This document shows, piece by piece, positions 12,436 through 62,405 of a DNA stretch of 64,000 nucleotides. The stretch spans positions 10,036,432-10,100,431 of the forward strand of contig CM119263.1 of assembly GCA_051294375.1 (NCBI GenBank), read 5' to 3'. The notes below the pieces were generated by a model, which was not told the origin of the DNA, ran no database searches, and was given only the letters and a program-made list of their open reading frames with translations. The position numbers and the translations under genes are program-made. The first letter of the stretch is position 1. Each line of letters begins with the position of its first letter. Origin of the DNA: Paraspadella gotoi (lineage: Eukaryota; Animalia; Chaetognatha).

Positions 12436-12565
12436 TATGAAATTTGTACAACCAATATAAAAATTATCCATTCATTTAATAAATAAGCTCTCTTGTCCCT
12501 GACTTTGGACAGGCTTTGGTGGTTTAAGGCCTCCATCACACTTACAAGATAATAACATAGCAGGT
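12436..12565 (-). mobile_element. Partial family F6 element with twister-like core (12491-12549)
   Basis: Reverse complement of 18004-18131; core essentially identical. Confidence 0.8.
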
Positions 12566-12714
12566 TATATTAGCAGGTTATATTATAACGTTATCCTCTT
12601 CCGTTCAGTTTCATTCCTCTTCTTTTTCCGTTAATTTTTTAAGAAAAACCTTGCATAGGCCTCCAGAGTATATTGATCTCCAGGAAGGCCAAAATTTGAA
12701 AAGAATGAAATATT

Positions 12715-15438: not shown

Positions 15439-15545
15439 ATTATCCATTCATTTAATAAATATGCTATCTTGCCCCTGACTTTGGACAGGCTTTTGTGGTT
15501 TAAAGCCTCCATCACTCTTACAAGATAATAACATAGCAGGTCCCT
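15439..15545 (-). mobile_element. Partial family F6 element with twister-like core (15465-15527)
   Basis: Reverse complement of 18004-18105 with a few substitutions. Confidence 0.75.
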
Positions 15546-17887: not shown

Positions 17888-18131
17888 CATACAATTGAAA
17901 CATTCTTTGAAATATTATACCACTTCATTGATAGGAAAGCCAGGTTCACTGGGAGTGAATAAATAAGACTGTGAGAGAGTCTTGATTGAAAGCTTGCAGA
18001 AACCTGCTATGTTATTATCTTGTAAGTGTGATGGAGGCCTTAAACCACCAAAGCCTGTCCAAAGTCAGGGACAAGATAGCTTATTTATTAAATGAATGGA
18101 TAATTTTTATATTGGTTGTACCAATTTCATA
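17888..18131 (+). mobile_element. Family F6 short LTR-like element
   Basis: Homologous over its length to 28999-29215 (minus); ends ttggttgtaccaatttcata. Confidence 0.7.
18016..18078 (+). ncRNA. Twister ribozyme-like motif, type-P5 permutation (cleanest copy); predicted cleavage U18041^A18042
   Basis: P5 TATCTTGT/ACAAGATA; P2 ACC with G(T)GT; conserved GA 18030-31; pseudoknot T1 TGGA/TCCA; palindromic P1 AGGCCT; TAA; T2 AC/GT; P4 CCTG/CAGG with loop TCCA-AAG-T. Confidence 0.8.
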
Positions 18132-19181: not shown

Positions 19182-22100
19182 CATCCTACCCCTATGCAAT
19201 TCGGAGTCGGCGGGCCGGTCTTTAAGGCCAGTGGACGTGGAATCGTTCGTAGTCAACGCGGGGTCACTGCAGACAATGGATCCGACGTGACTTACGCTGG
19301 TGGGACTCCAGTGGGAAGCAGCATCCGCCAACTCAAAATTCTTCCCTCTGGGTATAAAAACTTAAGAAAAATAATAAGATTGTATTATAATTATTATATA
19401 CCAATTTATATTTTAGTCGAAATTCATGACGAATTGGTTGTGTATGGTTCGATCATAATGATGGGAAAATAAAAGGACTAACTCAATATAACCGTTTTCC
19501 CAACCTACTTAATCAGTTAATGCTATTGATAATATTTACTTCAGCGAAGCGATTCGTTTCCCGAAATTGGAGGAGTGCGCGCACTTTCATTATGACTTTG
19601 TTGATGTCGGAATCGTGAGGTTAAAACTTCTCCCACTTGGCGACACAAGGCGAGCAACAGTACAGATCCTACAACCAAACAACTTTAAATAAAATAAGCT
19701 ATTAAACTTAAAGACAAATTCTAAAAATTGCATGCCCTAAATGATACATAGAGAAGTATGTTGGCCAAGAACTCAAAAACACTCCAACAGTAGGCCCTGT
19801 AGGGGTAGCCGCACTCAATGGGGTGAGTCAAAAATTTAGAGCGAGTACATGCTCAAACGAAAATTTATACATTTTTAAGTATACTTTCTATGGACAAAAA
19901 ATTTCTTATATGGCTCTATACCCTAGTAATTAATTTTTTAATATTTATTTATAGATATGAATGGCCAAAAATCTTTCTTAGAAATTTTAAATTTTAAGAC
20001 CAGATTCAGATAGCTCATAAAAAGTTGTCTACACAAAGTATAATTCTTTTTTAAATATTTTTATGATAAGTAGGTCAAAAATAAGAAAAACCATAAAATT
20101 CATCATCAACATCATCTTTCGATGATTTTATCGGTTTTTTTATATTTTTATTGAGAAAAAGTAATAATTTTTAAAAGCTGTAATTATATTTCTTGTTTAA
20201 CTTTTTATGCTCTACCAGAATCCATCAAAAAATTTCAACTTTTCAAAAAAAAATTTGTTTTCTCTATATAGTAATATAATAATTTTAATTAGGCTAGTAC
20301 CCTCAGAAAAAAGCATTTTTGACAAAAAATATTTTAACACTATAGTCATCATAGATTATTTTAACGCTGTATACATTAGCATTTTAATTTCATCGGCAAT
20401 GGCTCCCAACAGTGATGTTATTGATCATACGGATGATGCTCATTAAGTTTTGGCGGTTTATTTTGAAAATGATTAAAACCAGCATGTTATTGTAACAGCC
20501 AGCTTGTCTTTGATGCCAATTGGGATGGGGCATCTCACTGGTAGCTTAAGGGGCTACAGACCCTCAGTGACGCCTGCAGTCACTGGCGCGGTTACCCTAG
20601 GACGGTCTCGCTTTTCCAACACAGAGGGAAGTCGTTAGGACTGTGTATGGAACGTAACTCTTGGGATTGTGCGTTCCCCTCAGAGCCAATGGTATTGGCT
20701 GAAGGAAGTTTGAGGCGATGCGGTGTGAATATAGCGTCACAATCTGTAATTAAACGAGTTTTTAGAGCAGCATCAGCTCTTGAATAAAGTACATTGTCTG
20801 GGAGACTGGGTTGGAAATTATTTTCACGTTAAAGTGACAATCTAACCCAAACTGTTGAATTTACCATATTCTATAATTTTAGTAGATCCTTGGAGAGAGG
20901 CCAGTTCAATGCGTCCGGTCAAATCCCAACGATTTTATCCGATATCACAAATGGTAAGTCGCAAATTTATTTCGTAAGCTGATACTTCGTAAAAAAATCA
21001 TAATGTAATGTATTTAATTTCGTCAGAATCTCCTCCCTCGAAGAATCGAGCCTCGGTTCCGATCGAAGGGCTCAGCTTCTCCATAGAAGTGATGGCCAAG
21101 GACAACAGTTGGATCATCAAACGAACCTATGAGCAGTTTCGCCAGATGGACCATACTCTTCATCTTTGCATCTATGATAGGAGGTAATACAAAATCAAGT
21201 CAGTGTGGTTGAAATTACTCCACATAGTAAATTATATCACCTCGATTCAGGTTTTCTCTTCTTTTCGAAATCCCGCCTTTGGAGAGGGCTGTTAAGTCCG
21301 CCCTGAGCCGCAAAGGCAACCCGCTTCAGGAACTCTGGTCTGATCTAAGAAACTACGTCGGAAGACTGTCCACGATCGCGGGTAACCTGATCAACTGCGG
21401 GCCGATTCTCAATTGGCTGGAGGTAAATCATATGTGACATCGGTTCAATTTTTTTTTCTTGTTGATTAAAATTTTTGTAATCTTCGTTCTCGTTAGTTGG
21501 ATAATCGTGGCAATCACCTCCTCGCCGCGCCTAATTGCTCTGGAAGCGCGCCGATTAACACGCCAGCAGTGGCTGCTGCTCACGTCATCAAGAGTTACGC
21601 CCCCCAGGTGGGATAGAGAGTTTCCATTCGGTGTACTACATAGTAACAACGATTAGAGTTTAATCGCACTGTTTCCTGTCAGGCTCCGGACGAGCTTCGC
21701 CTGGAGGTCGGAGACATCGTCTCAGTGATCGACATGCCACCGGCGGAGGACACCACCTGGTGGCGAGGGAAAAAGGGATTCGGCGTCGGTTTTTTTCCTT
21801 CTGAACACGTCCAAGTCATAGGAGAGCAGGTCTTACGGTTTGCGTTGTCTAAGCAAAAATAAAAGTCCGGAAAACGAATGCACCAATTATAATCTAAAAC
21901 GAGTTTTAACATTTTTCTTAGAATTATAATAAAACGTATTCCCATGCCAGATATACATGACAAATTTTGAGTATTAATTTTGTAATTATTTTTCAAAACG
22001 TATGTATTCAATTGTTTTCGCTTGTTTTTAATTTTTAATTTGAGATACTGAATTCAGTTTATCTTCCTTCTCATCATGATTAATTTGCCCCCCCAAAAAA

Positions 22101-23852
22101 ACAAAAAAAAACAAAAATATTAAACATTAGAGCAATATAGACAGGATAAATTACCGCCGGTTATTTGCTAGTTTGAGAACTTCGGATCTGACTGTAGTCC
22201 GCCGCTACAGGTGGGTTAAACGTCCCGTGCCGCTTACTCGCATTGACACCGATAGGGCGCAAAACCAAGGCCGCTTGGTTGGAAGAGAGAATGCTCGCTC
22301 TTATGCGACCGGTGTTGCGAAAATGGAATCTGGCGGGTTGTGATAGCTAATGTGTTGCCACAAAACCAAATATTCTAGGTTGAGGCGTCAGCACTTGCAG
22401 CTCAGCTCGCTCAACCTAACGGCTCATCTGCCAGTGGGAAGGACTCTTGCGTTGTTCCTATGGAGACGACGCCGGGCTTCTCGACGCCGACGCTCTCCAC
22501 CTCCAACGCAGCTACGCCGACCAATGACGGCGACAGTGCGGTGTCGATGACGACGAAAAAGACACCCAAGCCCGTTTTGCGACGCAGGGGGAAGCTCATA
22601 TCTCGATTGAGGTAACGTACAATTGTCGCAATTCATTATGACTAATGACCATCTACAACCCCTTTTCCGGTGTCCCATTGTACTATCAAGGTCTCTGCTT
22701 CTGACTCGACCCGCCTCCAAAACCCGACTTCGCCAATCGGGGATCATGAAGGAACGCGTCTTTGGCTGCGATCTCGGAGAGAATTTGCTCAACACGGGTC
22801 GTCCAATTCCCTTTGTCCTGCAGGTTGAGCATTCGTCCTTTCTTGGTTGACCTCTATTTCTCACCCTGTTACTTCCCATCTATGCCGTTATTGCTTTTTC
22901 TAAGGATGGAAATGTTCCTTCTGACAATTACTTTTTATCGAGCCTACCGGCGAAGCCGGTTCAGGCTCGATATTGATTCGGGTCAGCTTTTTTGTGACGT
23001 CGGCGTCGTCGTCGGTGTCACGCTTTTTTGTATAAAAACTACTACGCTTTTATAGTTTTGGCTGGGACTTACCGTTTTTTTTTTAAATAAAAATTATTAT
23101 GAATTACGATGAAGTTTTATAAAAGTGTGCGATCTTAGTAAGTTAAATATTTAGATATGGCTTCTCATCTTGAAATAGCTCTGATATTTGGATTTAAGTA
23201 TTTTTTGTTTGAATTTCCACTTCATTATGATTTACTGCAATATGCAAATGAGATTATAGTACTCATTGTAATATCCAAATTAGTATATAAAAATGCTTTA
23301 ATCTAATTTACATATTACAGTATATAATATTGAAGATAAAATTCAAAATTTTTTTTAAATCTATAATAAAAATGGGAAATCAAAGGACCTTTTTAATGAG
23401 AAGCTATATCTTAATTTTAATACAAATAAAAATAAAATCTTTTACAAACTATGATTGGAAAAAATTGTAACAATTTCCAATTGTAAACAATTGTAACATT
23501 TTTTTTCCTTTCTTTTATTTCTTTAAATTATATATATATATTTTTTCCTATTTTTGTCAGTTGCTGCCTCTTCTGAACCCTTTAAAAACGAGTTCAGGCT
23601 CTGCAGTGATTGTACAACTGCCTTCCAGCAGCTGTCCAGTTTTCTCTCTTTCTTTCTCTGTCTCTGTCTCTCTTTCTTTCTCTTTCTGTCTCTCTCTGTC
23701 TCTCTCTGTACGATCTCTTGCGTAATCGTTTTTAAAAAAATTTGATTATTTTTTTCCTTTTAAAAACTTTTATTATCGCCATTTATTCTGCGCTTTTTTC
23801 TCAATGCAAAATCCCAAATTTACATCCGAGATTTTTGTGGATTTATTCTCTT

Positions 23853-23899
<47 letters not shown>

Positions 23900-26800
23900 A
23901 CTCATACACGCATTTGTTTGTTTTATTTATGATGAATGATTCATTGCGTCAATGAATGACTATCATCGCATCAATGAATGACTATCATCGTATCAATGAA
24001 TGATTATCATCACATCAATGAATGACTATCATCGCATCAATCATTTGGTTATTATCACATCAATCATTTGGTTATCATCACATCAATCATTTGGTTATCA
24101 TCGCATCAATTATTGGTTAATGGTTATCATCGCATCAATATTTGATTATCATCGCAACAATCATTTGGTTATCATCGCATCAATCCTTTTGTTATCATCT
24201 CATCAATATTTGGTTATCATTGAAGGTAGGCGAGAACCTATTCTTTTAAGAGAAAGGTCATTCAGCATAACAATACGTAATCATTGATGTGTTAGAGCTA
24301 ATATATCGAGAAATACTTTATAGTCATCAGTAATCACAAAGAAATAAGTTCTTATTTATTTGTGTTCATTCTGTTTTCAATAATTTTTTTAAATGGGTAA
24401 ATAACAAAATTGTTAAGTTAAATGGGTAAGCACATTTTTTAAAGATTTGTTTTTCAATCTGGTTGTTAAAAAATTCTAGGTAAGAAGTTAAAACACGGTA
24501 TGGGATAGTTTAGAAGGGGAGAATTAAACAATTAATCTCGTTACTCTGTTGGTTTTCCAGTCATGAACAAAATCTTCAGTTAAATAGATGGTAAAGAAAT
24601 TCGAGCTACAATGAATCTACACTGAATTTGAAGAGTTGCAGCCAAAACGACTGCAATAATATGGAATTAAAAACTTGATTAGCAATCTTAAAAACATTTG
24701 TAAAAATGTAATAGAGAGACATTTTGATAAACGCGTTCCAGTTAGAAAGAATTCAGGGTTAAAGTTTAAAAACGTTTCATTTTCAAGGATACAAGTTGAA
24801 ATTTAAAAATGTCTCTCTATTACATTTTTCTAATTCAGTAACAAAAAATTCATAAAAAATATCAGATGGATTGGCCTTTTCGTTTGACCTGCAACTCTTC
24901 AGATAGGTTTCTTTTATTTTATATTATAATTAAAACCGATATAAAATGGGGTAGAATGCATCAAATGCTTAAAGTGAATACATTTTCGGAATCGCCGGGA
25001 GCTCAGCTTTCTGAATTTGTACTCCATTTTAGCCTATTTTGAAGTTGAATTGAATGACCCTTTTTCTTAAGAATTTTAAATATCGATCTTATCCTTTCTT
25101 TTTAGGCCTGCGCAGGCGTCGTCGAGGAACACGGTATCGTAGACGGAGTCTATCGTCTTTCGGGTGTTGCTTCCAGCATCCACCGCCTTCGGGCGCTCTT
25201 TGACAACGACGGCTGCGCGCCGGATGTGGCGGCCGCCACTGGCACCAATGTTCAAAATGGTATGCTGCAAATTTATCTAATTTTTCTGTTTAAGAGGAAA
25301 GGTCATTCACCTTAACAATGCGTATTCTTTAATACATCGAGAAATACATCATAATCATAAAAAAAAAAAAAAAAAATAAAAAAAATTGGCCTGTTTTAAA
25401 GTTGATTTGAATGACCCATTTTCTTAAAACGATTTATTTTACGATGTATTTTTTCGAACCGAAAAGGGATGCCTCCGTCGCAATTCTCACTGGGTACCAA
25501 CGACGCCTTTGATCTCGCCGCCGATGAAACCGTTCAAAACGACATCCACGCAATCGGCTCACTCCTCAAAATGTACTTCCGCGAACTTCCTAATCCATTG
25601 CTGACCTATCAACTTTACGACAAATTCGTGGTACGGGTTTGGCTCGCATCTACGAGCCAAACAGAGTTTTTTAATTTTATATATTTAATAAAGAGATCGT
25701 AATTATTGTTATGTGTTAGTGACAGAAGCATTCAATATAAGCAGTCCCTGTTACAGTCGGGTTAAGCGCCCCGTCCCTCTTAACTGCGAGTCGACCACCG
25801 GGCTAGAACCACAGACCTTTGGGTTGGGAAGCGAATGACTTGCCTCCGGCACCAATGGCCGCTGATGAACAATTGGTGGATTTTAGTCTACCATAATAAT
25901 ATATATGACACAATGAAAAATAACATGGCGAAACGGTATAGTGCTGATTTTTTCCCTTTAAAATTGTTTCTGAGCTAAATTAATTGATTGTGACTTTGGG
26001 TAATATGTGCGATATACACTACTGGACATTACTGTGTCTGACCAAAACCCTTGACCATCAACAAAAAAGCTAACTAGATCAAAAATAGTAAAAAAGATGA
26101 AGCAATATAGCTCGAAACGCTTACAAAATTTTAGACCATTGCTTTTATAAATGCAAAAAGAATATTAATATTATTAAAACAAAACTTTAACGATAACTTA
26201 ATAGTTAACCGAGACCAAGATGAATATTTTTTACCCATCATTTCCACAATTTATATGAATCATTAGCTTGTAATTAGTCAATTAATCTAAATAACAAATT
26301 TATTTTCAATTTTTTTTATGGATGGGAAATTTTCTCTGCTTACTCCCCTTGTGTCTAATTATTTAATATTTTAGAGGTATTTTCAAAAACTTTATATAAT
26401 TACTAAATTTTTTCACTTTTTTTCAATTCTTTCAAACAAAAACAACATCATGAAAACATTTTAAATTAATAAAAAAAAATTGATTGTATGATTTTGAAAA
26501 AAAATATTTTGAAACTTGAGAATAATAGGAGCTGACGTCGTTCTAAGAGATCAAGGAAGATTTTTTCAATGGAGATTTTCGTTCAAATCAGACTACCAAA
26601 CAATATAAACGCTGCTGAGAAAAATTCCGGTAAAAAATAGATGTAAAAACACTAGATTCCGATCCTGTTGCATCTGAAGGGCTCGCATTTTTTTTCTCTT
26701 GTCAAATAACCTTCATCTTGATATCAAACTATCAGATTCAAATGGACTGCTCCGTTCGGGAAAATATTTTCAACGCAATTTTTATAAATAAAATAAAGGG

Positions 26801-29619
26801 ATTTCTCACCTAAAATACAATGTAAATGTTGTGATTTTACAATAAACTTTGAATTCAGGAATCCGATAGCCATATGTGTGAAGGGCTCTCAAAATTTTTC
26901 TTTACTTTTTATTTGGTTATTTTAATATGATACAATCATGGTAAAGTGAATTAGTCCATTTTGGTGAAATTTTTATTTAAAGTAAAAGTAAAAAAGGAGC
27001 TAACGATCGGAATTCTAAGAGTTTTCAACCGGGAGTCAGATTCAGGAAAAATCTTCTTTGGCGAAAATCTTCCAAAGAAGGGGTGGATTTTCTGAAGATT
27101 TTGGTTAATATTTTCTATATTTAGGATCGGATTTTTTTGAAACTTAACAATAGCAATATTGCCATCATTCTACATTGGCCGGTAAAAGAATATATTTAAA
27201 AAAATCTGGCTTTTTTTGTCAGAGCTTAGTCCTAAGAATAATGGATTTCGAGTTAGGAAAACAATTTTGCAATTCTAAAAAAATCAGCCTCTAGCCTTTC
27301 AATTTTTCTAGAGGCTGATTTTTTATTTTTTTGATATTTTGATTTATTTATTTTTAATTATTTATTTATTTATCTATTAATTAATTATTGAATCAATCAA
27401 GTCAATCGTTAACGGCATTATTGTCGACGTCGCCATAGTCGTCATTGCTTTTGTCATGGTTAGTAATGAAAAGGCCTAAAACAAACATTTCGGATCAAAT
27501 TAATTAATTGCCTAATTAATTAATTAATTAATTAATTAATTACCGCTAATGATCGTGGGCAGATCGGACATTGTTTGCTCAAACTTGTTTTTCTTACAAT
27601 TCATTTTAATAATTTTTATACATTCAAATGCAAAAAATGAGTGAGAAAGAGAAAAGGATAAGAGAAGCAAGAGCATGGGTTAAAAAACAGGGGCAGGGAG
27701 AGGGAGAAAGAGTGGAAAAAGTTATTTTATTGCGATTAGAGGCAGAACGAGAACGATTGAGAGAAAAAATAGATAGGAAAGAAGGGAGAAAGAGAAACAG
27801 AGGGAGAGAAAAGCAAAGATAGAGCGGAAGGGAAATAAAGGTAAAAGAAGAAAAGAAGGGATGGCACAGATAATTATGAGGAGAGAAAAGTAAGAGAAAG
27901 GGAGAAAGACAGAGAGAAAGAGAGAGGGACAGAGAGAATACTCATAACTCAATACTCATAACAATTATTACTGTCTTTTCAGTAGCAGGATCTTTGGGAT
28001 ACCATGAAGTACATTGAACTTGGGGTTGAAAAGTTCTGTGGTGTGGGGGAACGTAGCAGAATTGGAAGAGAATTTATAATATCGACTTTGGTATTGTCTT
28101 AGATAATCGGTAGACGGATCGGGAGATTGGTTGGGAGAAGGGTCGGGAGATGGGTTGGAAGACGGGTCAGGAGATTGGTTTTTTAGATGGGTCGGGAGAT
28201 GGAGCGTAAACTGGATCTGCAATCCTGCTTGGCACAAATTTTGTGTTGTCTGAGTGAATTTCTCTTTTAAAGAGTTCAGAGTTTGCGTTTAGCCATTTTG
28301 ATGGGCGTTGGTCGCAGTGAGAAACGATGACAACATTTTTATAGGTATTAGAAGTTTCGGCAAAGGGGGAAAGGGGTCTTTTTCTCCGAGTTTTTTCCGA
28401 ATTCATCAAACCAACTTTTCCAAGCATAGATCATTTTGACTTCTGAGTTTATGGCAGTGATAATTGGCGCGAGTTTTTGGGAGTGGAGGAGAATTAATAT
28501 CATTTGTAGACTGAAGGGGCTGAATTTGATTTTCAAGGGCAGACGTTTTTTTATTCTTTTTTCCAATTTTGCTAATCTCTAATTGGAATATATAATTATT
28601 AAGTAGTCTCTTTGTAGATGAACGGGCCTGTCTAAAGTGTAGCGACTGTGAGCTTGAGGGGCGCGTGGTCAGTAGGAGGGCAGCGCAGCGTGGGCGTTGA
28701 GAATGAAAAGGTTGCGTGTTCACGAGAAGGGATCACCAATAAAGAGACAGAAATAATTGGTAAGCGACTTGTAAAGAGCGGGATTCGAGAGTGTATTTTC
28801 TGAAGATATTCGGCAATTAAGTAAACGATGACCTCAGAGCATAATCAAAGGAAAGATAATAATAACTGGTCAAGTGTACAAAAAGAGAGAGAGAGACATT
28901 TCACATCTTCGGCCAAAGTGAATGGCCTGTGGCTCGGCGAAGTATCCTCCACAATCCACATACATACATTTATTTATTTATTTATTTATTTTTAACTTCA
29001 TGAAATTGGCTCAACAAATATAAAAATTATCCATGCATTTCATAAACCGACTTTGGAAAGCCTATGGTGGGTTAAGGCCTCTGAGGCGGTATTACAAGGT
29101 AAGAGGATCCTGCAAACTCTCAATCAAGACTCAGTCTTGTTTATTCATTCCCAGAGTACATTGCTTTCCTATCAATGTTGTGGTAAAATATTTCAAAGAA
29201 TATTTGAGTTGTATATCTTGATTACAGGAAGCCGTCTCGGTGAGCGAAGAGGGTCGTCTTAATAGACTCCGTGACTGCGTCGAGCGACTTCCGCCGCCGC
29301 ACTTCAGGACTGTCTGCTTTCTCATGCGCCACCTGTCAAAGATGGCCGACCACTCCCACCTGACCAACATGCATGCGAGGTTGGTCGATCTTGCCGCTAG
29401 TTTCAGCTCCCAACTTCTTTCATTTGCACGTTTGTTGTCTCTCGTTTCAGGAATCTAGCGATCGTTTGGGCCCCTAATCTCCTCCGTTCTAAGTCGTTGG
29501 AACTGAGACCAACAACCGGAGCCGACGGTGATTTTTTTTTATATTTCTTTCTCTATTATTTTCTTTCTCGATCTTTTTTATTTTTTATCTTCTTTTGTTC
29601 TTTCTTTTTTTTTCTATTT

Positions 29620-29715
<96 letters not shown>

Positions 29716-32700
29716 GTTTCTTTTTGTCTAGTTAAAAGTCTCCAATTTTCTTAAGGATCGACTCTTTCCTGGAGCGACGTGACAGCGTCTGCTGCTCTCC
29801 ACAGCGTCGGAATACAGGTGAGTAGATCATGTAATTTTAAAACAAGAAGCGAAATATTTTTTGATGATTTCATCTTTTCAAAATATTTCGTCGTCATACG
29901 TATATAGATCCCCGTTAACACTTATTTTACTTTCATATCTTACGTCATTTAACGTAATTTCATCTGGCGGAGGGACATTTTCAGTTGCGCCGCAAGTACT
30001 CGCGGAGCAACTCTATAAGTCACTTATTGGTCGGACTGTCCCACTTACGTTAAAAATGCATATAGATTTAGATTTATTCAGAAAGACCATGGGTCGGCCA
30101 TGGGTCGCGGATACAAATGATCTCGGGTTACAGTAGGGGTAGCCGCACTCAATGGGGTGAGTCAAAAATTTAGAGTGAGTACATGCTCAAACGAATATTT
30201 AGACATTTTAAAGAATACTTTCAATGGACAAAAAATTTCTAATATGGCTCTATAACCTAGTAATTAATTTTTTAATATTTATTTATAGATAGGAAAGGCC
30301 AAAAATTTTTTTGATAATTTTTAAATTTTAAGACCAGATTCAGATAGCTCATAAAAAGTTATCTACACAAAAGTATAATTCTTTTTTAAATATTTTTACG
30401 ATAGAAAAACCGTAAAAAATCATCATCATCATCATCTTTCGATGATTTTATCAGTTTTTTTATATTTTCTTTTAGAAAATGTAAGAATTTTTAAAAGTTG
30501 TAATTATATTTCTTGTTTAACTTTTTATGCTCTATCAGAATCCATCCAAAAATTTTAAGATTTAAAAAAAAAATTTTTTGCTCGATATAGTAATATAATA
30601 TTTTTAATTAGGCTAGTACCCTGAGAAGAAAGCATTTTTGACAAAAGATATTTTAATACCATAACCTATGGTCATGATAGATTATTTTAATACTGTATAC
30701 ATTAGCATTTAAATTTCATCGGCTATGGCTAGTTACAGTGAAACAAATAATCACGGTTATTACAACATAATGCCAAAAGTTAATCGCAAGATACAAGTCA
30801 ACAGTACAAATAATCACGGGTAGTGTAATTTGGCAGGTCTAAATAAATATATTTTGAGATAATTACTGCTAATCAAAAAATTTGCTCACGGATATCAAAT
30901 GCATATGGATTTAGATTTATTGAGAAAGATTATGGGTAGGCTATGGGAAGGCCATGGGTCGCGGATACAAATGATCTTGGGGTACAGTGAAACAAATAAC
31001 CACGGTTATTACAACACAGATGCCAAAGGTTAATCCCAAGATACAATAGTACAAATAATCACGAGTAGTTATAATGGGCGTGGCTTCAAATCCTACCGCT
31101 GCCACCACATTGAAGGAAAAAGTCATGGATTTCTAGGATGAAATCGAAACGAAATTTATTCTGAGAATAATAATGTGACGGTGAGATAGATCAATTCTAC
31201 TGAAACTAAGGAAAGCTAGGTCTATTTATATCTGCAAGCTGATTGGTCGATTCCAATTTTAGCTCGACCAATCATGATTCAATGATTCCGATTCTGCGGA
31301 GATCGCCCGATCCTTCGATCCGATTCTGCTTTGGGTTAGGTTGATTCTCCTGCGATGATAATTACTGCTATTCAAAAAATTTGATCACGGATATCAAATG
31401 TAATTTCAAACTTTCTTTAATCCAAACGACAATCTTTATCTCTAAGTCTAACTGTGGATTGTAATTGGATCTTTTCAACACTTTTCTCGAAAACGAAATA
31501 TAATTAAGACAGGAAAAAACCTCAATTCTAAGTGACTGCAAGCGCCGCCTTCAGAAAATCCTAAAGCAATAAACAATAAAAGACGGAATTCCAATGCAGT
31601 GTGTGTCATAAATACACAGGCTCTTAGCGTTTTTTAGTCATGTCATGTCATATCATGTTATCAAAGGGAAATACACTTGAAAATAAAGTCACTGCCGCGC
31701 AACACATTGGATGAACCGATCTTGTTTTATTTACTCCTATTTATTAGAGGGAGAACCCAAAATTTATTTTTGCTATTTAACAACAATAATTACAGAAGAA
31801 ATTGATAAAATAGTAAATTTTCAAATGATTTTTCTTCAGATATTATTTACCTAAAATTTTTATATCTTCAACATCAAAAATTGAGAGGGATGGAGGGAAA
31901 GAGAGAGAGAGAGAAATAAATGTTTCCAACAAAGAATTCAAATAAGGACAGTGGTCAGTTTTACAGGGTAAGTTTCAGAAGAGAGAGAGAAGGTGGTGAG
32001 GAAAAGAAAATAAAATTTGGCAGAAGAGAGATGCAGAGGTCAACAATTAAATCAATACATTAGGCAATAAGGCGTAGTAAAATTCCTAAATTCAACCTTA
32101 ATTAAAATTCTAAAAGTGAGGAACAAACAACATTATACTAATGAACATTTATGTAATGAAAAAATTTAGAATAAATTTTACAATTTACGCAGTAGGCCAT
32201 ATTTATACTAGTACTAAACCAATAAATGTTAAAATTTCAAAACAGTTTTTAAAGATTTTTTTGCAGATTTGGATTCGTCATAAAAAGTTGATAAAAAGAA
32301 ATATAACTCTTTTTGAAAAATTCATTTATTAAGTGGGTCAAAAATTAGAAAAAGCTATATTTTAAGCTGAAAATTAACTTTTTATATATTAAATATAGTT
32401 TTTTTAATTTTGAACCCACTTAATGAAAGAATTTTTAAAAATAATTTATATTTTCTTTTATCAACTTTTGACGAGGAATTCAAATCCGCAATCAAAATTA
32501 AGAAAAGCCTATTTTGAAACTTTTTGATTTTATAAGGATAGTACTATATATAAATATAGCCTACTGCGAAAATTAAAAAACATAAAATTAATTTTTTTTA
32601 CAAATTAATGTTCACTGATGGTATGTTGTTCATAATTGACTTTTAGAATTTTCGTATGCAACTTTCACTACGCCTTATTAGGCAATGTACAGCAATGATA

Positions 32701-35700
32701 AAGTTAAAAAAAGGCAAACTTAATAAGTAATTAAACTAAAGTGCAATTTGAATTTGAAGAAAGTGAAAATAGTGAGAAATGAAAAAAGAAAAAGAGGGCT
32801 TGAGGGCTTTGATGTAGATCGCCTCTCTAATACCTCTTGAGAACCAATTGGGGTCATGGGACAGCACGAGACCGTCAGTTTCTCTGAACAGATGGCCAGT
32901 ATTTGCTGACTTGCATATGTAAAGTTGAAACTAGTATGCTTAATGTTAATAATATGTTTATATTGGTTGTACCAATTTCATATCGTTGTTGATGAAAGAA
33001 ATTCTTTTTTCTCACTAAATCTTAAAACGCAACGAAAGGATAGAAATAATACAATAACTTAACCGTTAACATATTTATTTAAATGGTTAATTTCGGTTAA
33101 TTTTAAAAAAATATTTTTTTCATTTATTGGTATTAAATCTTTAAATTTTTTAAAGAAAAGTTTTTTTTCTTTTCCTCTCTTATTCTCCTCTCCATTTTTT
33201 TCCCGCCTCTTTCTCTTGTCCATTTTTTCCGTTTTTTTAAACTCTTTTAAGGTCATTCACCTTAACAAGGCGTAATCTTTGATGTATTAGAGCTAATAAT
33301 ACTATTAGAGAGATACATGGTAATCACCAGTAAGGCGTAGTAAAATTTCAAAATTTAACTTTAATTAAAATTCTAAAAGTGAGGAACGAACAACATTATA
33401 CTAATGAACATTTATGTATAAAAAATTTATAATAAATTTTACAATTTACGCAGTAGGCCATATTTATACTAGTACTAATCCAAATAAAGTTAAAATTTCA
33501 AAACAGTTTTTTCTAAGATTTTTTGCAGATTTGGATTCGTCATAAAAAGTGATAAAAGAAATATAAATCTTTTTAAAAATTCCTTCATTAAGTGGGTAAA
33601 AAATTAGAAAAAACTATATTTTAAGCTGAAAATTAACTTTTTATATATTAAAATAGTAGTTTTGTAATTTTAACCACTTAATGAAAGAATTTTTAAAAAT
33701 AATTTATATTTTCTTTTATCAACTTTGACGTGGAATTCAAATCTGCAATAAAAATTAGGAAAAGCCTATTTTGAAATTTTTCGATTTTCATAAGGATAGT
33801 ACTAATATATAATATAGCCTACTGCGAAAATTAAAAACATAAAATTAATTTTTTTTACAAATTAATGTTCACGTGGTGTATGTTGTTTCATAATTGACCT
33901 TTATAATTTTCGTACGTAACTTTCACTTCGCCTTAATCACCAGTAATCACAAAAAAAGTTTTATTTATATGTAAACATTTTGTTTAAATAATTTTTTAAA
34001 TCGGTAAATAACAAAATTGTTAAATTAAATCGGTAAGCACATTTTTAAAGATTTGTTTTTTCAATCTGGTTGGTTGTTTTTCTTGGTAAGAGGATAAAAC
34101 ACGGTCAGGGATAATTTAGAAGGGGAGAGTTAAACATTTTTCCAGTCTTGAACTAGATTCCTACATAAATTTTTAAATTTGTCAGAACGTTTTTTCTTTT
34201 TTGTTTAAGAGAAGTTGCCTTTAAATACTTTAATCTGTTTAAAATATAAATATTTAAAAGTTAAATTATAAATGAACGGTTAACGGTTAAAAATGTTTAT
34301 ATTAACGGTTAACGCAAGTTCCTAAAAAAATTATGGTTAACAGAAACTCTATTCACAGGCAGTTGTGATTCGAAATATTGTATCGTTATGCGGATTCAAT
34401 TTTCACGCGATTGAGATTAACGACATCACTATGGGAAGGGCATGCCACCTCTGAACGCGTAAGTTTGACCTTTGTCGTCGAATCTACCCAGGAATAGTTT
34501 TTAATATTGAATGTATATCTTGCATTGATATTTCAGGTTAAATAAGTGATTTGGTACGATAAGGAACTTTCTTCGAAAATGAACCAAAACTTTTATAATT
34601 CACAACCATAATTATCCTTTTATTCTGTCAAGAAGTACGTTAATTACAATTATAGAAATATCTTTATTCATACTACATCAGCGTTGTAGAGAAGAAATGA
34701 CGACAATCTCCGCCTACATCACGCGTTGCGATTTTGATGGAGTGAGTTTAGATTGAGATTTCCACGTTTTCTTCTTGTGCTGCCTTAGATAAAAGTTTAA
34801 AGACAAGTCACATGGTGATCGAAGGGAGAATTGACTTTCCTAAAAAATAAATATTCACCTTTTCTCAGTTTTCGCGCGGCCGCATTTTTAGTCGGATCTG
34901 CTTATCAGCAAATTCCGACTCTATAATCCACTTAGTCGGTCCGCCGTTCCAACCTCCATTTTTATCATATCAGAACATCGAATTATGATAAATTATGCAA
35001 AAAAAATTATGTCCGTACGTCCGTCTTAGTGTCCATCCCACCTTAGCAATAAACTCCAATTACTTTTAATTGGATGAATGGATTGGAATGAAATTTTGTG
35101 TGTGGGTAAGAAAGCGTGTGCTTGAGTTGGATATAAAGTTTTGATGGAATCGTGAAAATGGAAATGATTTAAAATTGGAAAAACAAAATTGACATTTACT
35201 TGTCTCTTTTGATTTACATTAACTTATAATTCTTCAGGACATCCTTTGCAACCTTATTTACATTTTTGTCCTTGTTAATGTCAATTTTAATTCAACACTG
35301 TTCTCCGTAAGCACCCCATTTCTGTTCTTAATCCCTAAACTCAATATATTTAAGCTTATTTATAAAGGCGTAGTGAATGTTGCAGATCAAAATTTGAATA
35401 GTTGATCATGAACATAAACAGTCTTATATTAAAGAACATTGATATATAAAAAAAATTTGAACTTCCTAATTTTTGCATTAGCCCATATTTATACATTAAG
35501 GCGGATCTCTGTTGTATAATTTTTTTCAAAATCTTTTACCTCCCGATTTTTTTTTTGCCCTTTGTACTTCTCTTTCATTTCACAACAGCAATTGATTATT
35601 AAATATTCGGGATCACACGCATTTTTTTCAATTTATAAAAAAATAGCAAATCGCGAACTGTGATTGGTTAATATTGGTCACGTGACCTTAAAATCTTTGT

Positions 35701-37951: not shown

Positions 37952-40900
37952 ACAGGGATAAATAAATAATAAATGATACATTGTGCAATGTACAACAAAG
38001 ATAAATGCTTTGAAAAACTAAAATTAGTGAAATTTAACAATTATCAATTATTCCATATATCATTATAATAAGTGTAAACTGGAGTTTAGCCCAACAATGG
38101 CCAGCGCCGCAACTTTCAGTTTTAATTTTGCTTCTCGAATCAGATTCAGTCCCACATACCAACTCTTTATTGATGTAGGAAAGCAAAACTTAAAAACTCG
38201 ACAAAACCAATCGCTATCCTTGGAAAAGAAAAGACCTACCATTAAATTTGCCAAAAACAATGAATGAAAAATATCTTGTTTTGATTTTCATTTTATTCAA
38301 CTGCAAATGAGAAACCAAAAATACCCCTGTTACATCTTTCTGTCTCTCTCACTCATGACATAGATCCACTAGGAGTCCAGTAAAATTGATTTTGTATCAG
38401 GCATAAACTCTCTTTCTCTCTATATTTTAAAAACGTCTGGTGAATGATAGGACATATAAGGAATAATTTATAACAGGGTCTCACAAGTTAATTACAATTA
38501 AAATAAAATGATACAGAGTTGATGACCGATATTGAACCTTATCACCCATTCATCGACTTGGGTTTTTTTAATTAGAAGCATTAGCTTGTCCCTCTCCAGA
38601 CGATAGCGCAAACTACGACAAAAGCTGAGCTGTTTTGGTATCAAGGAAGCCCAGGGCACTATTTTTTACTCTTTAAATCTTTCTCACTCTCTCAATTTTT
38701 TTATCTTTTTTTCATGTCTTTGTAAGTTCTTTTAATGCTTGATTGTGAAGCAAGAAAAATACTTTACAATCTATGAAATAATAATTATTTTTTTTATTTA
38801 TTCAATTTAGAGACCTTTCATTTGACAATTATAATATTTGGGATAGAGAGGAACATAAAGAGAGAAAGAAAAAAAAATCTCGAATTAAATTATGTATCTT
38901 AATCTCATTTGTATATTATAATTTGCATATAGTGAAAAACGCCTAATGTGTGTAATAGTTATAAAAAGTTAGTTTCATATTTTCATTCTAGTCAATGACT
39001 AGTAACGAAATAACCGAGATGTAAACCTTAACTCCTTACTCGATCCACCTTATTATACATTGTACTCACCATAGAAAATGTAAAAATTATAAAATATTTG
39101 AAGAGACAGTAATTATTGTTATTTGTTAGTGATAGAACCGTTCAATATAAGCAGTCCCTGAGCTTCGGATTTTAGTTCACCCAGGCGTAGTAAAATTTCT
39201 AAATTTAACTTTAATTAAAATTCTAAAAGTGAGGAACGAACAACATTATACTAATGAACATTTATGTAATAAAAAAATTTATAATAAATTTTACAATTTA
39301 CGCAGTAGGCCATATTTATACTAGTACTAAACCAATAAATGTTAAAATTTCAAAACAGTTTTTTAAAATATTTTTTTGCAAATTTGGATTCGTCATAAAA
39401 AGTTGGTAAAAAGAAATATAACTCTTTTTGAAAAATTCCTTCATTAAGTGGGTCAAAAATCAGAATAAGCTATATTTTAAGCTGAAAATTAACTTTTTAT
39501 ATATTAAATAGTTTTTTTAATTTTTAACCCACTTAATGAAAGAATTTTTAAAAATGATTTATATATTTTTGATTTTTCGATTTTATAAGGATAGTATTAT
39601 ATATAAATCACCATATATATATATTATATATGAATCACCATACATCCCCCCTCCCGTAGAGAGAAGTCTGTTGTGTCTCTTCAGTGAATTGTTGTTGGTG
39701 GAAAGTGCATCACCAAGTTGAGGCATGTCGCCTGATGTGTTGTTGGCTGAAAGTGCATCACCAGGTTGAGGCCTGTTGCCTGAAAGTGTCGTTGCTGTTG
39801 TGTTCGGAAGTCGGGCTCACCAATGAAGAGACAGTAATTATTGTTATATGTTAGTGATAGAACCGTTCCATATAAGCAGTCCCTGAGCATCGGATCAGGC
39901 TGTAACACCATGTTACAGGCGGGTTAAGCGCCCCATCCCTCTTAACTGCTGGGCGGCCACCAGGCTAGAACCCCGGACCTTTGGGTTGGGAGGCGAATGA
40001 CTTGCCTCCGGCACCAATGGCCGCTGATGAACGGTTGGTGGATTTTAGTCCACCATATATTTTTTTTAGTTTTGAAAGCAGATTTAAATTCCTCATAAAA
40101 ATTTCAAAAAAAAAATACAGCAAGGTGTCCAGCCCTTTTGGTACTAAATTAAAGAAATCGTTTGAACGGGTAAATAAAATAATAATGGTATGAAAACTGG
40201 TACACATATAAAAAATTGTCTTGACTGCAAAATCTATTAAAATTTGTCTTTGGCAACCCTGACCTCCAAATGATCAGAGAAGGCGTCGTATGCTTTTGTG
40301 CCGCGCCCATTTGGAATGCTGCCATTTCTGCCACTATTAATGCTATCAGAAAGTCAAAGAGTTTAGGAGATTGTAGTCAGAAAAGCTGCGAGGTCAGAAG
40401 TCACCATCCTTCATCTTGATCCTTATAAAATCGAAAAATTTCAAAATAGGCTTTTCTTAATTTTGATTGCAGATTTGAATTCCTTATCAAAAGTTGATAT
40501 AAGAAAATATAAATCATTTTTGAAAATTCTTTCATTAAGTGGGTTAAAAATTTAAAAAACTATATTTAATATATAAAAAATTAATTTTCAGCTTAAAATA
40601 TAGCTTTTTTTAATTTTTGACCCACTTAATGAAAGAATTTTTCAAAAAGAGTTATATTTCTTTTTATCAACTTTTTATGACGAATCCAAATCTGCCAAAA
40701 AATCTTAGAAAAAACTGTTTTGAAATTTTAACATTTATTGGTTTAGTACTAGTATAAATATGGCCTACTGCGTAAATTGTAAAATTTATTATAAATTTTT
40801 TTATTACATAAATGTTCATTAATATAATGTTGTTCGTTCCTCACTTTTAGAATTTTAATTAAAGTTAAATTTAGAAATTTTACTACGTCTTAATAGTTAT

Positions 40901-43900
40901 TGTTCTTTCAGTAACTGTAGTTATGGTTGTGTTTGTAGTGATTAAGATAGTTATGATTTAATTTTAAGTAGTTATTATTTTTGTTATGAGAGAAAATAAA
41001 AAAATAATTTAAAAAGTTTAATCACTCACTTTTCTATTCACAAATAAAATTTGAACTAATTGCTCCATCCACACATCAGTGATTAAAGTTTAAAGCTAAG
41101 GGCTGATTGATTGATAGATGGACATCATTTTTTTACATAATAATTTAATATTTTAAAATGTTTTAAACAAAGTGGATTATTAAGTTAGAATCTGCGACTA
41201 GCAAATCTGACAAAAAGCTTAAATGGGGCACTTTTTAAAAATTTTGCTGTCATTTTTTGGTCACCAAAGTGCTAAATACTAAAAATAATAAAAAAATTTT
41301 TACCTATATCCTTAAGAAGCATTCTACTTTTTGCTTTACTTTTGTGGTGGTCACAAAAAAGGCATTCTCTATATGTATTATATGTATTACCAGCTAATTT
41401 TATTTATAATTGATATTATTTATTTAGCTAATTTTAAATAGAATAAATTTGCTTACTAATTTTCTATGTCAAATAAACTTCGGTTGGTTTTTATGAATGC
41501 GACTTCGTTGTAGACGCGAGAACTTATATACTGAAAAAAAAAATGAATTGATATATTGAAGAGACAGTAATTATTGTTATTTGTTAGTGACATAACCGTT
41601 CAATATAAGCAGTCCCTGAGCTTTGCATCCGGCTGTAACACCATGTTACAGGCGGGTTAAGCGCCCCATCCCTCTTAACTGCTAGGCGATCACCAGGCTA
41701 GAACCCTGGACCTTTGGGTTGGGAGGCGAATGACTTGCCTCCGGCACCAATGGTCACTGAGGAACGGTTGGTGGATTTTAGTCCACCATTCTTCCCCCCC
41801 TCCCATAGGGAGAAGTCTGTTGTGTCTCTTCAGTGAATTGTTGTTGTTGGTGGAAAGTTCATTACCAAATTTAGGCATGTCGCCTGTTGTGTTGTTGGCG
41901 GAAAGTGCATCGCCAGGTTGAGGCATGTCGCCTGAAAGTGTTGTTGTTGCTGTGGTGTTCGGAAGTTGGGCTCACCAATGAAGAGACAGTAATTATTGTT
42001 AGTGTTATTGTTAATGACAAAACCATTCAATATAAGCAGTCCCTGAGCTTCGGATCAGGGGGGTTAAGTGCCCCGTCCCTCTTCACTGCTTGGCGACCAC
42101 CAGGCTAGAACCCCGGACCTTTGGGTTGGGAGGCGAATGACTTGCCTCCGGCACCAATGGCCACTAATGAACGGTTGGTGAATTTTAGTCCACCATAATA
42201 TAATGGTTCATCGGCAAATCTCAACCACTTACCTTGACTTTTGAAAACATATCGGTAAAGCCTTTTAGGTAACGCCAGACTCCGGGATCAAACCCAGGTG
42301 CACCTAATTCGAATTTCCGATGTAGATGAGTCAGAATATTAGATGATTGCGTTACTTTCTCTAGTTTACCGTACTCTTCCTGAAGTCTCTCCCACTCTTG
42401 AAAAGCGTGGAGCATGAGAAAGCAGAATCGCTGGTCCTTCTCGGTCAACTTGTTTCTCAGCATGTTAAAGATCTGTTTTCCCAAGCGAATTTAATGATTC
42501 GTACAGTTAACCTATTCTGGCGTTCTGATCATCACAAATAACGACATTGCTTACTGGCGAAATTCCGTTTGGTTCTTGTCGTTGAGCCCACCAGTGATAC
42601 AAATTAGTCAGATCTGGTGTAACAAAATAATCAGGGGAAGTTGTGAAAAGCCAAAAGCCAAAAATCGGACGGGATGAAACCTGGAACCTCCGGACAGGGA
42701 ATGAGATTCATGATATAGTTTCGAATGTCCAAGTTTTCCTCGTCAAGCTGAGCCTCCGATGTACTGTTGTTCATGCTGTTCTGCTCCGTTTCGCCGACGT
42801 TGGAGGAGGAGCTTGAGCTCATCGAGGATCTGGAGTGGGTAATGGGGCGAAGCCAACACGAATCGACCTTTAAAATGTTTAAAATGCAGCCGTGAAAGGA
42901 GTAAGGAGGAACGGCACCTTCTTATATTTTCGTTTTCGTTGGCGCCGTAAAAACGGAGTCCGTCGTCTTCAAATCCCGGATCTTTCACGTGACCCTCGCA
43001 GTCTTGAATCACGGGGGGACGCATGTATTGTGAAACGTCCATGTCTAACGATATAGGGGGTTTTGGGATGTGTAAGGGGAGGAAGGGTAATTTGGTATCT
43101 AAATCATCTCTAACACTCTCTTTTTTGTTTATTTGATACAAATCCTAATCAAAATTTGTCTTGACTTCAAAAGAAATCTCAAAACACGGAAATAACAAAA
43201 GTTTTAATCCAAATAAAACGAAAGATGGCATTTTTTAAAAACACTGGGAATTGGGATGGGTCTGTTATGGCTAAAAAAAAACTAGGTACTCTTTTTTTCT
43301 GTGCGTATGGTAACAGCCGGGTTGCCTATGATGTCCATTGGGATGGGTTATCTCCCTGTTGGCTTTGGGGGCTTCCGACCCTCAGTGACGCCAGTCACTG
43401 GCGCGGTTACCCTAGTACGGTCTCGCTTTGCCAACACAGAGGGAAGTCGTTAGGACTGTGGATGCATTGCAACGCTTGGGATTGGCTGAACGATGGTGGA
43501 TAAGAGGCGGTATGAAATCAGAATTCTAATCCCTAATCTTTAAGCTTAGTTCTTAAGCCTTAATCTCTATCCCCAATCATTAAACTAATCCTTAACTGTA
43601 TCCTTGACCTATTCTTTAACGGTAACCTTAAATTAATTTTTAAACCTAAAAATTAATTTTATTCCGAATTTAAGATGATGGGGCTGCAAAGTAGGTTAGA
43701 AAGGATACTAACCTAGAAACAAATAAGCATAGCCCTCCTTCCTCCTGCTAAATAATCGAAATCATCTCTCAGTTTTTTGTCTCCCTAATACTTTTTTCAT
43801 GACGTGTGAAAAGAGGTTACATTTTATCTTTTTAATATTTCTCTTCTTCTAGATATCGTTCTCTATTTTACTTTTGTTTTCGAAAAATTTATGGCGAAAT

Positions 43901-60216: not shown

Positions 60217-62405
60217 GGCGAAACCGATGACTTCTCTCTTCTCTCATTTGGATTCTTTTCTTTCAATATTTTTTTCCCTTTTATTGGTAATTTGACGGTC
60301 GCGGCTTTTCTTTCATTATGATTATTTTGTTAATTTTTTGATATAATCGTTTTAGTTTCTCTCTTTCTCTCTCTCTCCTCTCTCTCTCCTCTCTCTCTTC
60401 TCTCTCCCTCATCTCTTTTTGGCCCATATTGGCTTCGAGATTTCGTTTTCGCTTGTCGTAGTCGTACTAGTCGTAATCGCGAAGCGACGAAATATCAAAC
60501 GGTGTCGAAAAGTAACTTCATTGACGATTATTCCTGAAGTGCTCAATATCGTCAGTCTTTTACCTTGTGCTCGGTAGTTAGTTTTTCTGTGGTTTCAGGT
60601 TATAATTGTTTGGTCTATACAAACGTTTCTTTTGTCGAAAGTTACGATCTATTGTTTAACCGTCAACTACTCTTGCCATATAAACAGTCTGTGATGTTCC
60701 GAGGTTTCGTATCAGAGTACTGATAGCTTTTGTGCAGCCGTATTAATATATTGCAGCATTAGAATAGCTCGGTTTAAAAATTGTTCGGAGTCTTTACGTT
60801 GAGAGGGCGAGAGATGCGTGTGACATCAGTCAACTTTCTAGAAGCTATCTGTTGTAACGAAATGTTTTTAATTTGTTTTTTCTTTGTCAAAACTCCAGCT
60901 GAAATTTTTTTCTTAGCTTAGCTTTAGTTTTTTAGGGCAAAGAAAAAATTAACTTTTCATATCTATTTATTTTTTAAAAACGTAAGATTAAAACAGATTA
61001 TCCAAACATTCCAGGAAAGGGTTATGATAACAGCTCTTTCTCTAAAATTGCCAACTTTAACACTTTTTTGTCATTAAATATTTCTACTTTATGAGCTTTA
61101 AACTTTACTCAAAATCTGGCGGTTACCTTCTCATGACTCTAATTTTAGATTAGATTCCCGAATTGCATTTACAAAAAAATCTCCGTCGCTTTGTTCCTCC
61201 TTTTAAATGCAGGAATTCGCTTTCCCTCATCTAAGTTTTTTCTTTCCCACTCTTCCTTCGCAAGATTATTTAGGCATGCGCGTAACAACCTCGCCCCTTC
61301 CTCAATCCTCAATCCTCATGTATCTATTTGCTTTAAAATTCTCTCTTTTTTTCAAGTTAAAATTTAGACCAAACGTCACTTAATCATCTTTTGATTTAAA
61401 TTAGCTCACGCAACAGTGCAATGTAGTTGAGTAGCATGTAGTTAGTTTCCGAAAGAGTCGTAGTTTGCCAAAGCGTTTGGGTCTTTTCATTCGTTTTTTT
61501 TTTCTTTTTTGTGATATATTCACCACAAATTATTCAATTTATTTTGCGCACTTTTTTATTTTGTAAGATTTCTATCTGGTAATTATTATTATTGATAATT
61601 ATTGTATTGCTTCACCAATTTGATAGAATTATACTCATTTACAACAAAGAACACTGTTTGATAATTTCGAATTCATCGACTACATTTGATAGTTCCTCTA
61701 AGTTTTATATTTTGCAGTCATTTTTTAAAAAAATACTGATTGTTTTGAATTTGAATTAATTCATAGAAATTAATTCATTTCCTTTTCGTGGCATCACATT
61801 TGATTTTATTTTTAAATTCCGGATTCGTAAGTTAATATTTCTGATCCCTCACCCCCGAAAGCGATTGAAAAAAAAAAATTTTGACCGAAGATCACTTGAT
61901 CAGTATCACCCGGTGCTGTCACACACAGACTAGATTTCTGAAGTCTTTAAATTGGCACTTTGAAAGAAAATGACACAGGAAATATCGTCACTCTTTTCAT
62001 GAATAATTATTGTATCGTATGTATAATATCTACATAGCAAGTATGATGAATTGTTATTTATATAAAAAAAAAGGTACGTCAAACCAGATTCAATAGTCAT
62101 TTGCGAAAAAGTAAATCGCAGGAGCGAGCATCAAGTTCAAGAATGGTCCTTTTGATAAAAATGAGCGCTTGCGTGAAGAATCGAGATTAGATTGAGTGCT
62201 AAAGCGACAGCTCGTGATCCGATGAAAAGAGACTTTGTTTAGTTGTTCAAAATAAAAACGCCATTATTAATGAAAAAGAACAAACAACCCGCACAAAAGC
62301 CGCGAAAATTGATTATAAAACTTGGCGTGGTGATCGTAATTTAAACTCGACTGAAAAATTCGAAAATGATCCGCGAAACTACAACGATCGTCCTTTTAGT
62401 TTTAG

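Follow-up and report, generated by a model that had tools for sequence, protein, structure and literature searches.

The stretch analysed here, 64,000 nucleotides of the chaetognath Paraspadella gotoi (GenBank assembly GCA_051294375.1, contig CM119263.1, positions 10,036,432 to 10,100,431 of the forward strand; hereafter the window), holds a family of miniature long terminal repeat (LTR) retroelements, F1, in whose LTRs a tRNA-like segment is followed by a twister-like core. We propose that F1 is a gene-less element of the Helenus type that works as an LTR retrozyme by way of a dimeric twister, and we put the probability of this reading at about one half (0.52). The narrower statement, that F1 is a Helenus-type terminal-repeat retrotransposon in miniature (TRIM) with a type-P5 twister-like fold in its LTR, is supported in the sequence by compensatory changes in T1, T2, P2 and the palindrome of P1.

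Anatomy of the F1 elements

The F1 features of the window are listed below, with target-site duplications (TSDs), primer-binding sites (PBSs) and polypurine tracts (PPTs).

41557–42197 (−), 641 nt: element B, a complete miniature LTR retrotransposon of family F1; TSD ATAT on both sides
41979–42197 (−), 219 nt: 5′ LTR of B; P3 deleted, T2 and the P1 palindrome broken (alignment, core comparison)
42092–42164 (−): tRNA-Gly(CCC)-like segment of the B 5′ LTR (ARAGORN 85.5 at a lowered threshold; box B GGTTC), likely an internal promoter for RNA polymerase III (Pol III)
42035–42089 (−): twister-like core of the B 5′ LTR; predicted cut site 42066/42065 (core comparison, fold)
41963–41977 (−): PBS of B, tRNA-Trp type (matched by eye to a published PBS)
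41823–41832 (−): interior 10-mer of B that is the complement of the final 10 LTR bases (41979–41988); the predicted long-range helix would enclose the PBS
41791–41804 (−): PPT of B (sequence)
41557–41790 (−), 234 nt: 3′ LTR of B (LTR alignment)
41685–41757 (−): tRNA-like segment of the B 3′ LTR (ARAGORN 83.8)
41608–41682 (−): twister-like core of the B 3′ LTR, in which one pair each of T1 and P4 is broken; predicted cut site 41659/41658 (core comparison)
39099–40057 (−), 959 nt including an insertion: element A, with disrupted 3′ LTR; TSD AATA on the minus strand, that is, TATT on the plus strand
39824–40057 (−), 234 nt: 5′ LTR of A; terminal hairpin 40036–40055, tRNA-like segment 39951–40024 (fold, ARAGORN)
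39875–39949 (−): twister-like core of the A 5′ LTR, with a substitution at one conserved adenine of L4; predicted cut site 39926/39925 (core comparison)
39643–39823 (−), 181 nt: interior of A; PBS 39808–39822, PPT 39643–39655 (sequence)
39183–39634 (no strand assigned): unrelated AT-rich repeat of about 450 nt inserted in the A 3′ LTR; copies 92–95% alike at 32070, 33333 and 40501
39099–39182 (−): remnant of the A 3′ LTR after a 148-nt deletion (alignment)
25689–25895 (−): F1 solo LTR whose twister core lacks its 3′ half; the flanks agree at 3 of 4 bases (LTR alignment)
7468–7652 (−): F1 LTR fragment truncated by another repeat (LTR alignment)

Element B is the better preserved of the two, its LTRs being identical at 196 of 214 aligned positions around an interior of 188 nt, the longest reading frame of which has no Pfam match. 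An initial annotation of this DNA had placed both elements at the coordinates given here, with the same 4-bp TSDs, and had described an interior of about 185 bp with PBS, PPT and a terminal hairpin; all of this stands, the interiors measuring 181 and 188 nt. It had also called both elements complete, which holds for B; the 3′ LTR of A is split by the AT-rich repeat, and the 148-nt deletion removed its tRNA-like segment together with the first (5′) half of the twister core. The ribozyme motif is thus in both LTRs of B, each damaged, and lost from the 3′ LTR of A. The LTR length of about 234 bp fits the A 5′ and B 3′ LTRs and fails for the B 5′ LTR, and the unit of about 415 nt fits A (415 nt between predicted cut sites) and is 407 nt in B. 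The LTR ends are TA...CA and not TG...CA: a start at TG was rejected, as none of four 5′ ends fits it and the TSDs fit TA.

By eye, the first interior bases agree with the tRNA-Trp PBS of Gypsy-32_NVi and Helenus-2_SyJa at 13 of 14 positions in A and 12 of 14 in B. The 10-base complementarity between LTR end and interior is also found in A (39674–39683 with 39824–39833). F1 copies in the window are decayed and probably inactive.

Two further observations belong here. The AT-rich repeats form a family with internal inverted repeats (32070–32652, 33333–33910, 39183–39634 and 40435–40890), of which one copy splits element A. Ends like the 3′ end of the F1 LTR occur at 28716–28762 (−) and 27958–27981 (+), the first followed by a different PBS-like stretch.

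The twister-like core and its covariation

In the sense of the minus strand, the core runs P5-P2′-GA-T1′-P1-UAA-P2-GC-P3-P4/L4-P5, the order that had been read at the outset and that the comparison of cores recovers. The P4 hairpin with L4 is present, and the molecule is opened in P5, as in type-P5 twisters. A core pattern written from F1-type copies has 6–10 matches in the window (0–3 mismatches), against none in ten shuffles. The UAA cleavage loop is found in 10 of 10 cores, drawn from F1 and three sister families (F2, F3 and F4), and the catalytic G of the GA before T1′ is kept in 5/5 F1 and 3/3 F2 copies.

P1 does not form a hairpin. It is a 6-nt palindrome with a loop of zero bases, so that pairing is possible only between two copies and a monomer cannot close P1. 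The hexamer is fully self-complementary in F1, F2 and F3, with a different sequence in each, and at 4 of 6 positions in F4; the rate for random hexamers is 5.3%. The self-duplex of the F1 hexamer is predicted at −8.3 kcal/mol.

The sister families used in the comparison are as follows.

22128–22362 (−): F3, likely a solo LTR; twister-like core 22167–22241, with CA for GA (core comparison, covariance model)
63313–63561 (−): F4, likely a solo LTR, with start and terminal hairpin as in F1, box A and box B; core 63368–63443, with CA for GA (core comparison, covariance model)
18018–18076 (+): F2 core, twister-like, with GA and one of three well-preserved copies; no LTR element around it, no tRNA-like segment seen (Rfam, covariance model)
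12491–12549 and 15466–15525 (−): further F2 cores (covariance model)

Covariation had been named as a check on the fold, and compensatory changes are indeed seen across the four families. The test compared one natural copy per family, P4 and P5 being left out and fixed anchors written into the script because MAFFT misaligns F2 beyond T2. Of 44 core cells (11 pairs in four families), 42 pair, and 5 of the 11 pairs change on both sides, namely one P2, one T1, one T2 and two P1 pairs (exact permutation p 0.0013). As a control, partners slid by 1–3 columns pair in 11–28 of the 44. T1 pairs in 12/12 cells and T2 in 7/8, each with a two-sided change, and the changes in T1 and T2 divide the families differently; breaks in T1 and T2 occur in single F1 copies. 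With P4 included, the count is 56/60 (p 5e-6), but the register of P4 in F2 is doubtful, and the smaller test is therefore preferred. On six distinct rows, P1 and P2 are 97.2% paired, a value that 0 of 500 shuffles reach. With a covariance model built from F1, F3 and F4 only, the three F2 cores are all recovered (E 2e-7 to 7e-7), the next match being at 0.66; these F2 cores are also matched, weakly, by the Rfam Twister-P5 model. Finally, F1, F3 and F4 are alike at 8–14 of 40 bases upstream of the core and at 19–20 of 26 within it, with two-sided changes among them.

Could the likeness to a twister be due to chance? Rfam finds no match on F1, and the cores have minimum free energy (MFE) z-scores of −0.7 to +0.8, the minimum fold of the monomer not being the twister fold. 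Against chance stand the excess of pattern matches over shuffles, the pairing of P1 and P2, the four-family test and the recovery of F2 by the covariance model; covariation in both pseudoknots nearly refutes it, and we regard it as hardly credible.

F2 repeats lie at 17889–18131 (+), 12436–12566 (−), 15438–15541 (−) and 29000–29214 (−), with short 3′ ends at 295, 17780 and 32954. The core, with a perfectly palindromic P1 and GA, sits near their common 3′ end; copies are shortened from the 5′ side, and the one at 18017–18077 has no core defect. F2 is possibly the tail of a Penelope-like element. A relative of F3 at 6028–6150 is too decayed to tell CA from GA, and at 17650–17740 (+) a box B-like motif precedes a loose twister-like stretch that has no score in the profile scan or the covariance model.

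The core pattern was also scanned against collections that hold little animal DNA and are uninformative on its spread: viral contigs gave one match, in gene-dense phage DNA and attributed to chance, and none in two further scans; metagenome contigs gave one, with T1 mismatched and likewise read as chance; prokaryote genomes gave none.

The tRNA-like segment and a proposed replication cycle

At its default threshold, ARAGORN reports no tRNA gene in the window. With the threshold lowered to 80, it calls tRNA-Gly(CCC) in 5/5 F1 LTR copies, at scores of 81.6–88.1, among 24 calls in the window. In the A 5′ LTR the segment can be drawn as a cloverleaf whose 7-bp acceptor stem is perfect and whose anticodon arm is poor (fold z −2.25). 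Box B reads GGTTC in 4/5 F1 copies and the YGG of box A is present; at the same place F4 has clearer boxes, TRGCY and GGTTC. Rfam gives no tRNA match on the two F1 elements or F4. We take the segment as tRNA-derived and as a putative promoter.

How, then, would an element with no genes be copied? We infer the whole of the following scheme, from a Pol III start through cleavage in both LTRs and circularisation to a Gypsy helper. Transcription by Pol III would begin in the 5′ LTR, about 34 nt from its end, at the tRNA-like segment, and the transcript would run on through LTR and interior, where in A the sense strand has no run of four T (not a significant absence). The twister copies of the two LTRs, lying in one transcript, would pair through the palindromic P1 to form a double twister. 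Both would cut at U^AA, about 132 nt into each LTR, and the tRNA-like head would be shed. The resulting piece of about 415 nt, with a 5′-OH and a cyclic phosphate at its ends, would be joined into a circle by tRNA ligase. On this circle tRNA-Trp would prime the reverse transcriptase of a Gypsy-type helper, and reverse transcription round the circle would rebuild two LTRs from an RNA that has no terminal repeat. The dimer is an amendment to the mechanism as first annotated, made because a loopless P1 means that cutting likely needs two copies. The predicted circle is of modest stability, with z of −2.1 and −2.5 (2 and 0 of 100 shuffles as good). Given CA in two sister families, the fold may instead have a non-cleaving role.

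Evidence against cleavage, and alternative readings

Several results weigh against the proposal that F1 is a retrozyme. Cleavage, transcript and circle are all predictions from DNA sequence. The core is defective in all five F1 copies, in keeping with the original caveat, and intact source copies are postulated. P2, which has 4 bp in published twisters, consists in each of the four families of 2 bp and a single further pair beyond a bulge. F3 and F4 have CA at the catalytic GA though their pairings are kept. Rfam has no twister match on either F1 element or F4 up to E 10; the search suggested in the initial annotation yields a weak Twister-P5 match (RF02684) on the F2 cores, at 25.6–26.3 bits, under the gathering score of 37.6. 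Compared with the predicted minimum, the nested fold compatible with a twister is less stable by 6.7–8.5 kcal/mol in F1, F2 and F3 and by 16 kcal/mol in F4, these energies counting neither pseudoknots nor the dimer. The sequences used to test the structure are also those from which it was derived, and without F2 pairing falls to 88.8%, which 10–21 of 500 shuffles equal on four measures and 183 on a fifth. As to the promoter, the tRNA-Gly-like segment announced beforehand is found in every F1 LTR copy at the lowered threshold; its score does not rise above background, ten shuffled windows giving 24–40 calls at threshold 80. Moreover, box A of F1 lacks TRGCY and box B has T at a purine position. 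The predicted circle is 52–55% paired, against more than 70% reported for animal retrozyme RNAs, and no helper element was seen in the window. Lastly, the F1 core diverges by 6.6%, compared with 4.8–7.5% for the rest of the LTR, and is therefore no better conserved. Such even divergence is as expected for neutral decay after insertion. We also considered selection to inactivate the core in genomic copies, which the divergence comparison does not support.

The CA dinucleotides bring in a different view of the fold, in which it derives from a twister and no longer cleaves. It would most probably act as a dimerisation or packaging signal that joins two RNAs through its palindromic hexamer, in an element that otherwise replicates like an ordinary Pol III TRIM with a terminal repeat. 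F3 and F4 both have CA for GA while T1 and the palindrome core covary between the two, and P2 is shorter than in active twisters. By eye, moreover, the two Ajax consensus LTRs in the supplement of PMC10886601 (Ajax-1_NGe and Ajax-1_LiLo), as far as covered, have a comparable half core of CA type close to the beginning of the LTR. It lies ahead of the promoter, so that a cut there would apparently cost the element sequence that it needs, and a hairpin resembling L4 precedes the PPT. The Ajax likeness was, however, picked after the fact and by eye, and the half core may be chance or a non-cleaving relative. F3 and F4 are represented by one decayed copy each, and the constancy of GA in F1 and F2 and of UAA in every core speaks for cutting. 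We consider loss of cleavage unlikely, though a serious competitor.

The even decay of all F1 copies in the window would also suit a passenger. A tRNA-headed short interspersed nuclear element (SINE), with a twister tail from a Penelope-like element such as F2, may have landed in the LTR, and the pairings would have been selected earlier. For Helenus, Kojima suggests an origin in which a SINE inserted into an LTR (PMC10886601, in the part covered), and F2 has the same core, a common 3′ end and 5′-shortened copies. Yet F1, F3 and F4 are all LTR-like and have diverged upstream while the core was kept with two-sided changes, which points to selection after the split of the LTR families, unless there were several captures. 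This history seems to us improbable, a shade more so than a fold that has ceased to cut.

Two lesser departures concern transcription. In one, the twister would cut only to form transcript ends, or as a monomer that dispenses with P1, and no circle would arise; in the other, transcription would be by Pol II or by read-through, the tRNA-like segment not being a promoter. Twisters without P1 cut, inefficiently, according to the passages of PMC8501958 covered; the lack of a four-T run in the LTR and interior of A may mean that another way of ending the transcript is needed; and box A is weak. Against this, absence of such a run is expected about half the time at this base composition (an estimate), two cuts at matching LTR sites deprive the RNA of the terminal repeat on which linear LTR replication depends, and the covariation of the palindrome argues for a paired P1. 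We hold these variants to be very improbable.

Relation to known elements

The comparisons that follow refer to the passages of each paper that were covered. F1 resembles Helenus (TRIMp3; Kojima 2024, PMC10886601), which is non-coding and under 1.3 kb, with a tRNA-like segment in its two LTRs (box A TRGCY...YGG, box B GGTTC), a PBS for the 3′ end of a tRNA, a PPT and, in animals, a 4-bp TSD: F1 is short and non-coding, element B has two LTRs, PBS and PPT, and both elements have a 4-bp TSD. It differs in the twister-like core after the tRNA-like segment, the TA...CA ends and the weak box A. Pol III transcription is unproven for published Helenus too (PMC10886601). The main text of that paper has the word 'twister' 0 times and 'ribozyme' only in the title of a reference, and a search of the Helenus entries in its supplement with the twister-core motif gave no match in twister context, line breaks there being able to hide matches.

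With the LTR retrozymes of plants (PMC4918200, PMC7761336, PMC9695139) F1 shares PBS, PPT, 4-bp TSD, a non-coding interior, a proposed Gypsy helper and a putative ribozyme motif per LTR, damaged in both LTRs of B. The plant elements, in contrast, have a type III hammerhead, a tRNA-Met PBS, a unit of 600–1000 nt and circles demonstrated by experiment, and no tRNA-like promoter is described for them in the passages covered; F1 has a twister-like core and a Trp-type PBS, and its predicted unit RNA is not highly self-paired. In the predicted circle of plant LTR retrozymes the ribozyme is held in a blocked state (PMC4918200). RtcB is the enzyme that circularises retrozyme RNAs (PMC7229834). The relevant passages of two papers, PMC7229834 being one, describe animal retrozymes as devoid of LTR, PBS and PPT.

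Among ribozymes, the closest counterparts are the type-P5 twister (RF02684) and the T-variant twisters of Perere-3 in Schistosoma (PMC8501958), which agree with F1 in GA-T1′, UAA, T2, L4, helix order and the link with a retroelement; by eye, P3 of the Schistosoma twisters is near-identical and L4 similar. F1 departs from both in its loopless palindromic P1, its shortened P2 and a score under the Rfam threshold, and the Schistosoma twisters lie at the 5′ end of a non-LTR element whereas the F1 core lies in an LTR. A palindrome that replaces one helix, with a tandem layout that supplies the partner, is also a feature of the minimal hammerheads of Penelope-like elements, which likely cleave as dimers (PMC6765202), although both ribozyme class and retroelement class are different. 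A tRNA adjoining a hammerhead is known in non-LTR repeats of Schistosoma, in the source as covered.

In the open full-text literature we found neither a twister within a true LTR, nor a ribozyme in any TRIMp3 element, nor a twister that acts as a dimer. The same literature gave no report of a tRNA-like promoter combined with a twister in an LTR, a combination that the initial annotation had suspected to be undescribed.

A parallel comes from wasps. A search of the PMC10886601 supplement for Trp-type PBSs led to two Helenus families of Synergus, Helenus-2_SyJa and Helenus-2_SyUm. In the entries as covered, their LTRs appear by eye to contain a tRNA-like segment (5′ half) and then a type III hammerhead, with the core CUGAUGA and GAAAC, stems I and II and a 12-base loop–loop complement. 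The 7-base core motif of the hammerhead occurs 8 times in the supplement, and only these two families are hammerhead-like in the context shown; the passages of the paper covered do not remark on it. The Synergus families are thus like F1 in their tRNA-Trp-type PBS and in a ribozyme motif after the tRNA-like segment, and unlike it in having a type III hammerhead for the twister-like core and a longer interior. If the hammerhead reading is right, two ribozyme classes occupy the same slot of the LTR.

Genomic setting

Exons of an SH3-RhoGAP gene (ARHGAP32/33-like) lie on the plus strand at 20993–29500 and at 50158. Among the 120 of 947 matches listed for these exons, the best named ones are animal ARHGAP32/33 or CdGAPr, at 65–80% identity. 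A motif 3′ of the RhoGAP domain, present in 82/82 long homologues, is found at 50158, which places elements A and B antisense within an intron interval of the gene. The insertions with a twister-like core are on the minus strand in 10 of 11 cases (p 0.012), antisense to the RhoGAP gene where they overlap it, a bias that is confounded by probable minus-strand genes. At 41531–42232 (−), element B appears to lie in sense within a former 57-nt GT-AG intron of a nested minus-strand gene; a search for relatives of the nested minus-strand reading frames at 42.2–43.1 kb found none.

Two fragments, at 11026–11451 (+) and 32787–32867 (−), have no Pfam match; we take them to resemble the end of a Penelope-type GIY-YIG endonuclease. 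The stretch 62345–62524 (+) is presumably the start of an exon of a trypsin-type serine protease.

Significance

Taken together with the wasp families, F1 raises the thought, which we hold tentatively and at somewhat less than even odds, that animals harbour unrecognised Pol III-driven LTR retrozymes, primed by tRNA-Trp and copied from small RNA circles, in which one slot is filled either by an obligate-dimer type-P5 twister or by a type III hammerhead. The hammerhead of the wasp Helenus would offer a second entry point, in sequenced insects.

If the F1 core does cut, F1 would count as an LTR retrozyme of animals, a group whose retrozymes are described without LTR, PBS and PPT. It would also place a twister in a true LTR and have it act through a swapped palindromic P1; none of these was found in print. 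Twisters, whose biological roles are mostly open, would gain a defined job, and F1 would illustrate how an element transcribed by Pol III from an internal promoter can restore its LTRs by way of a circle.

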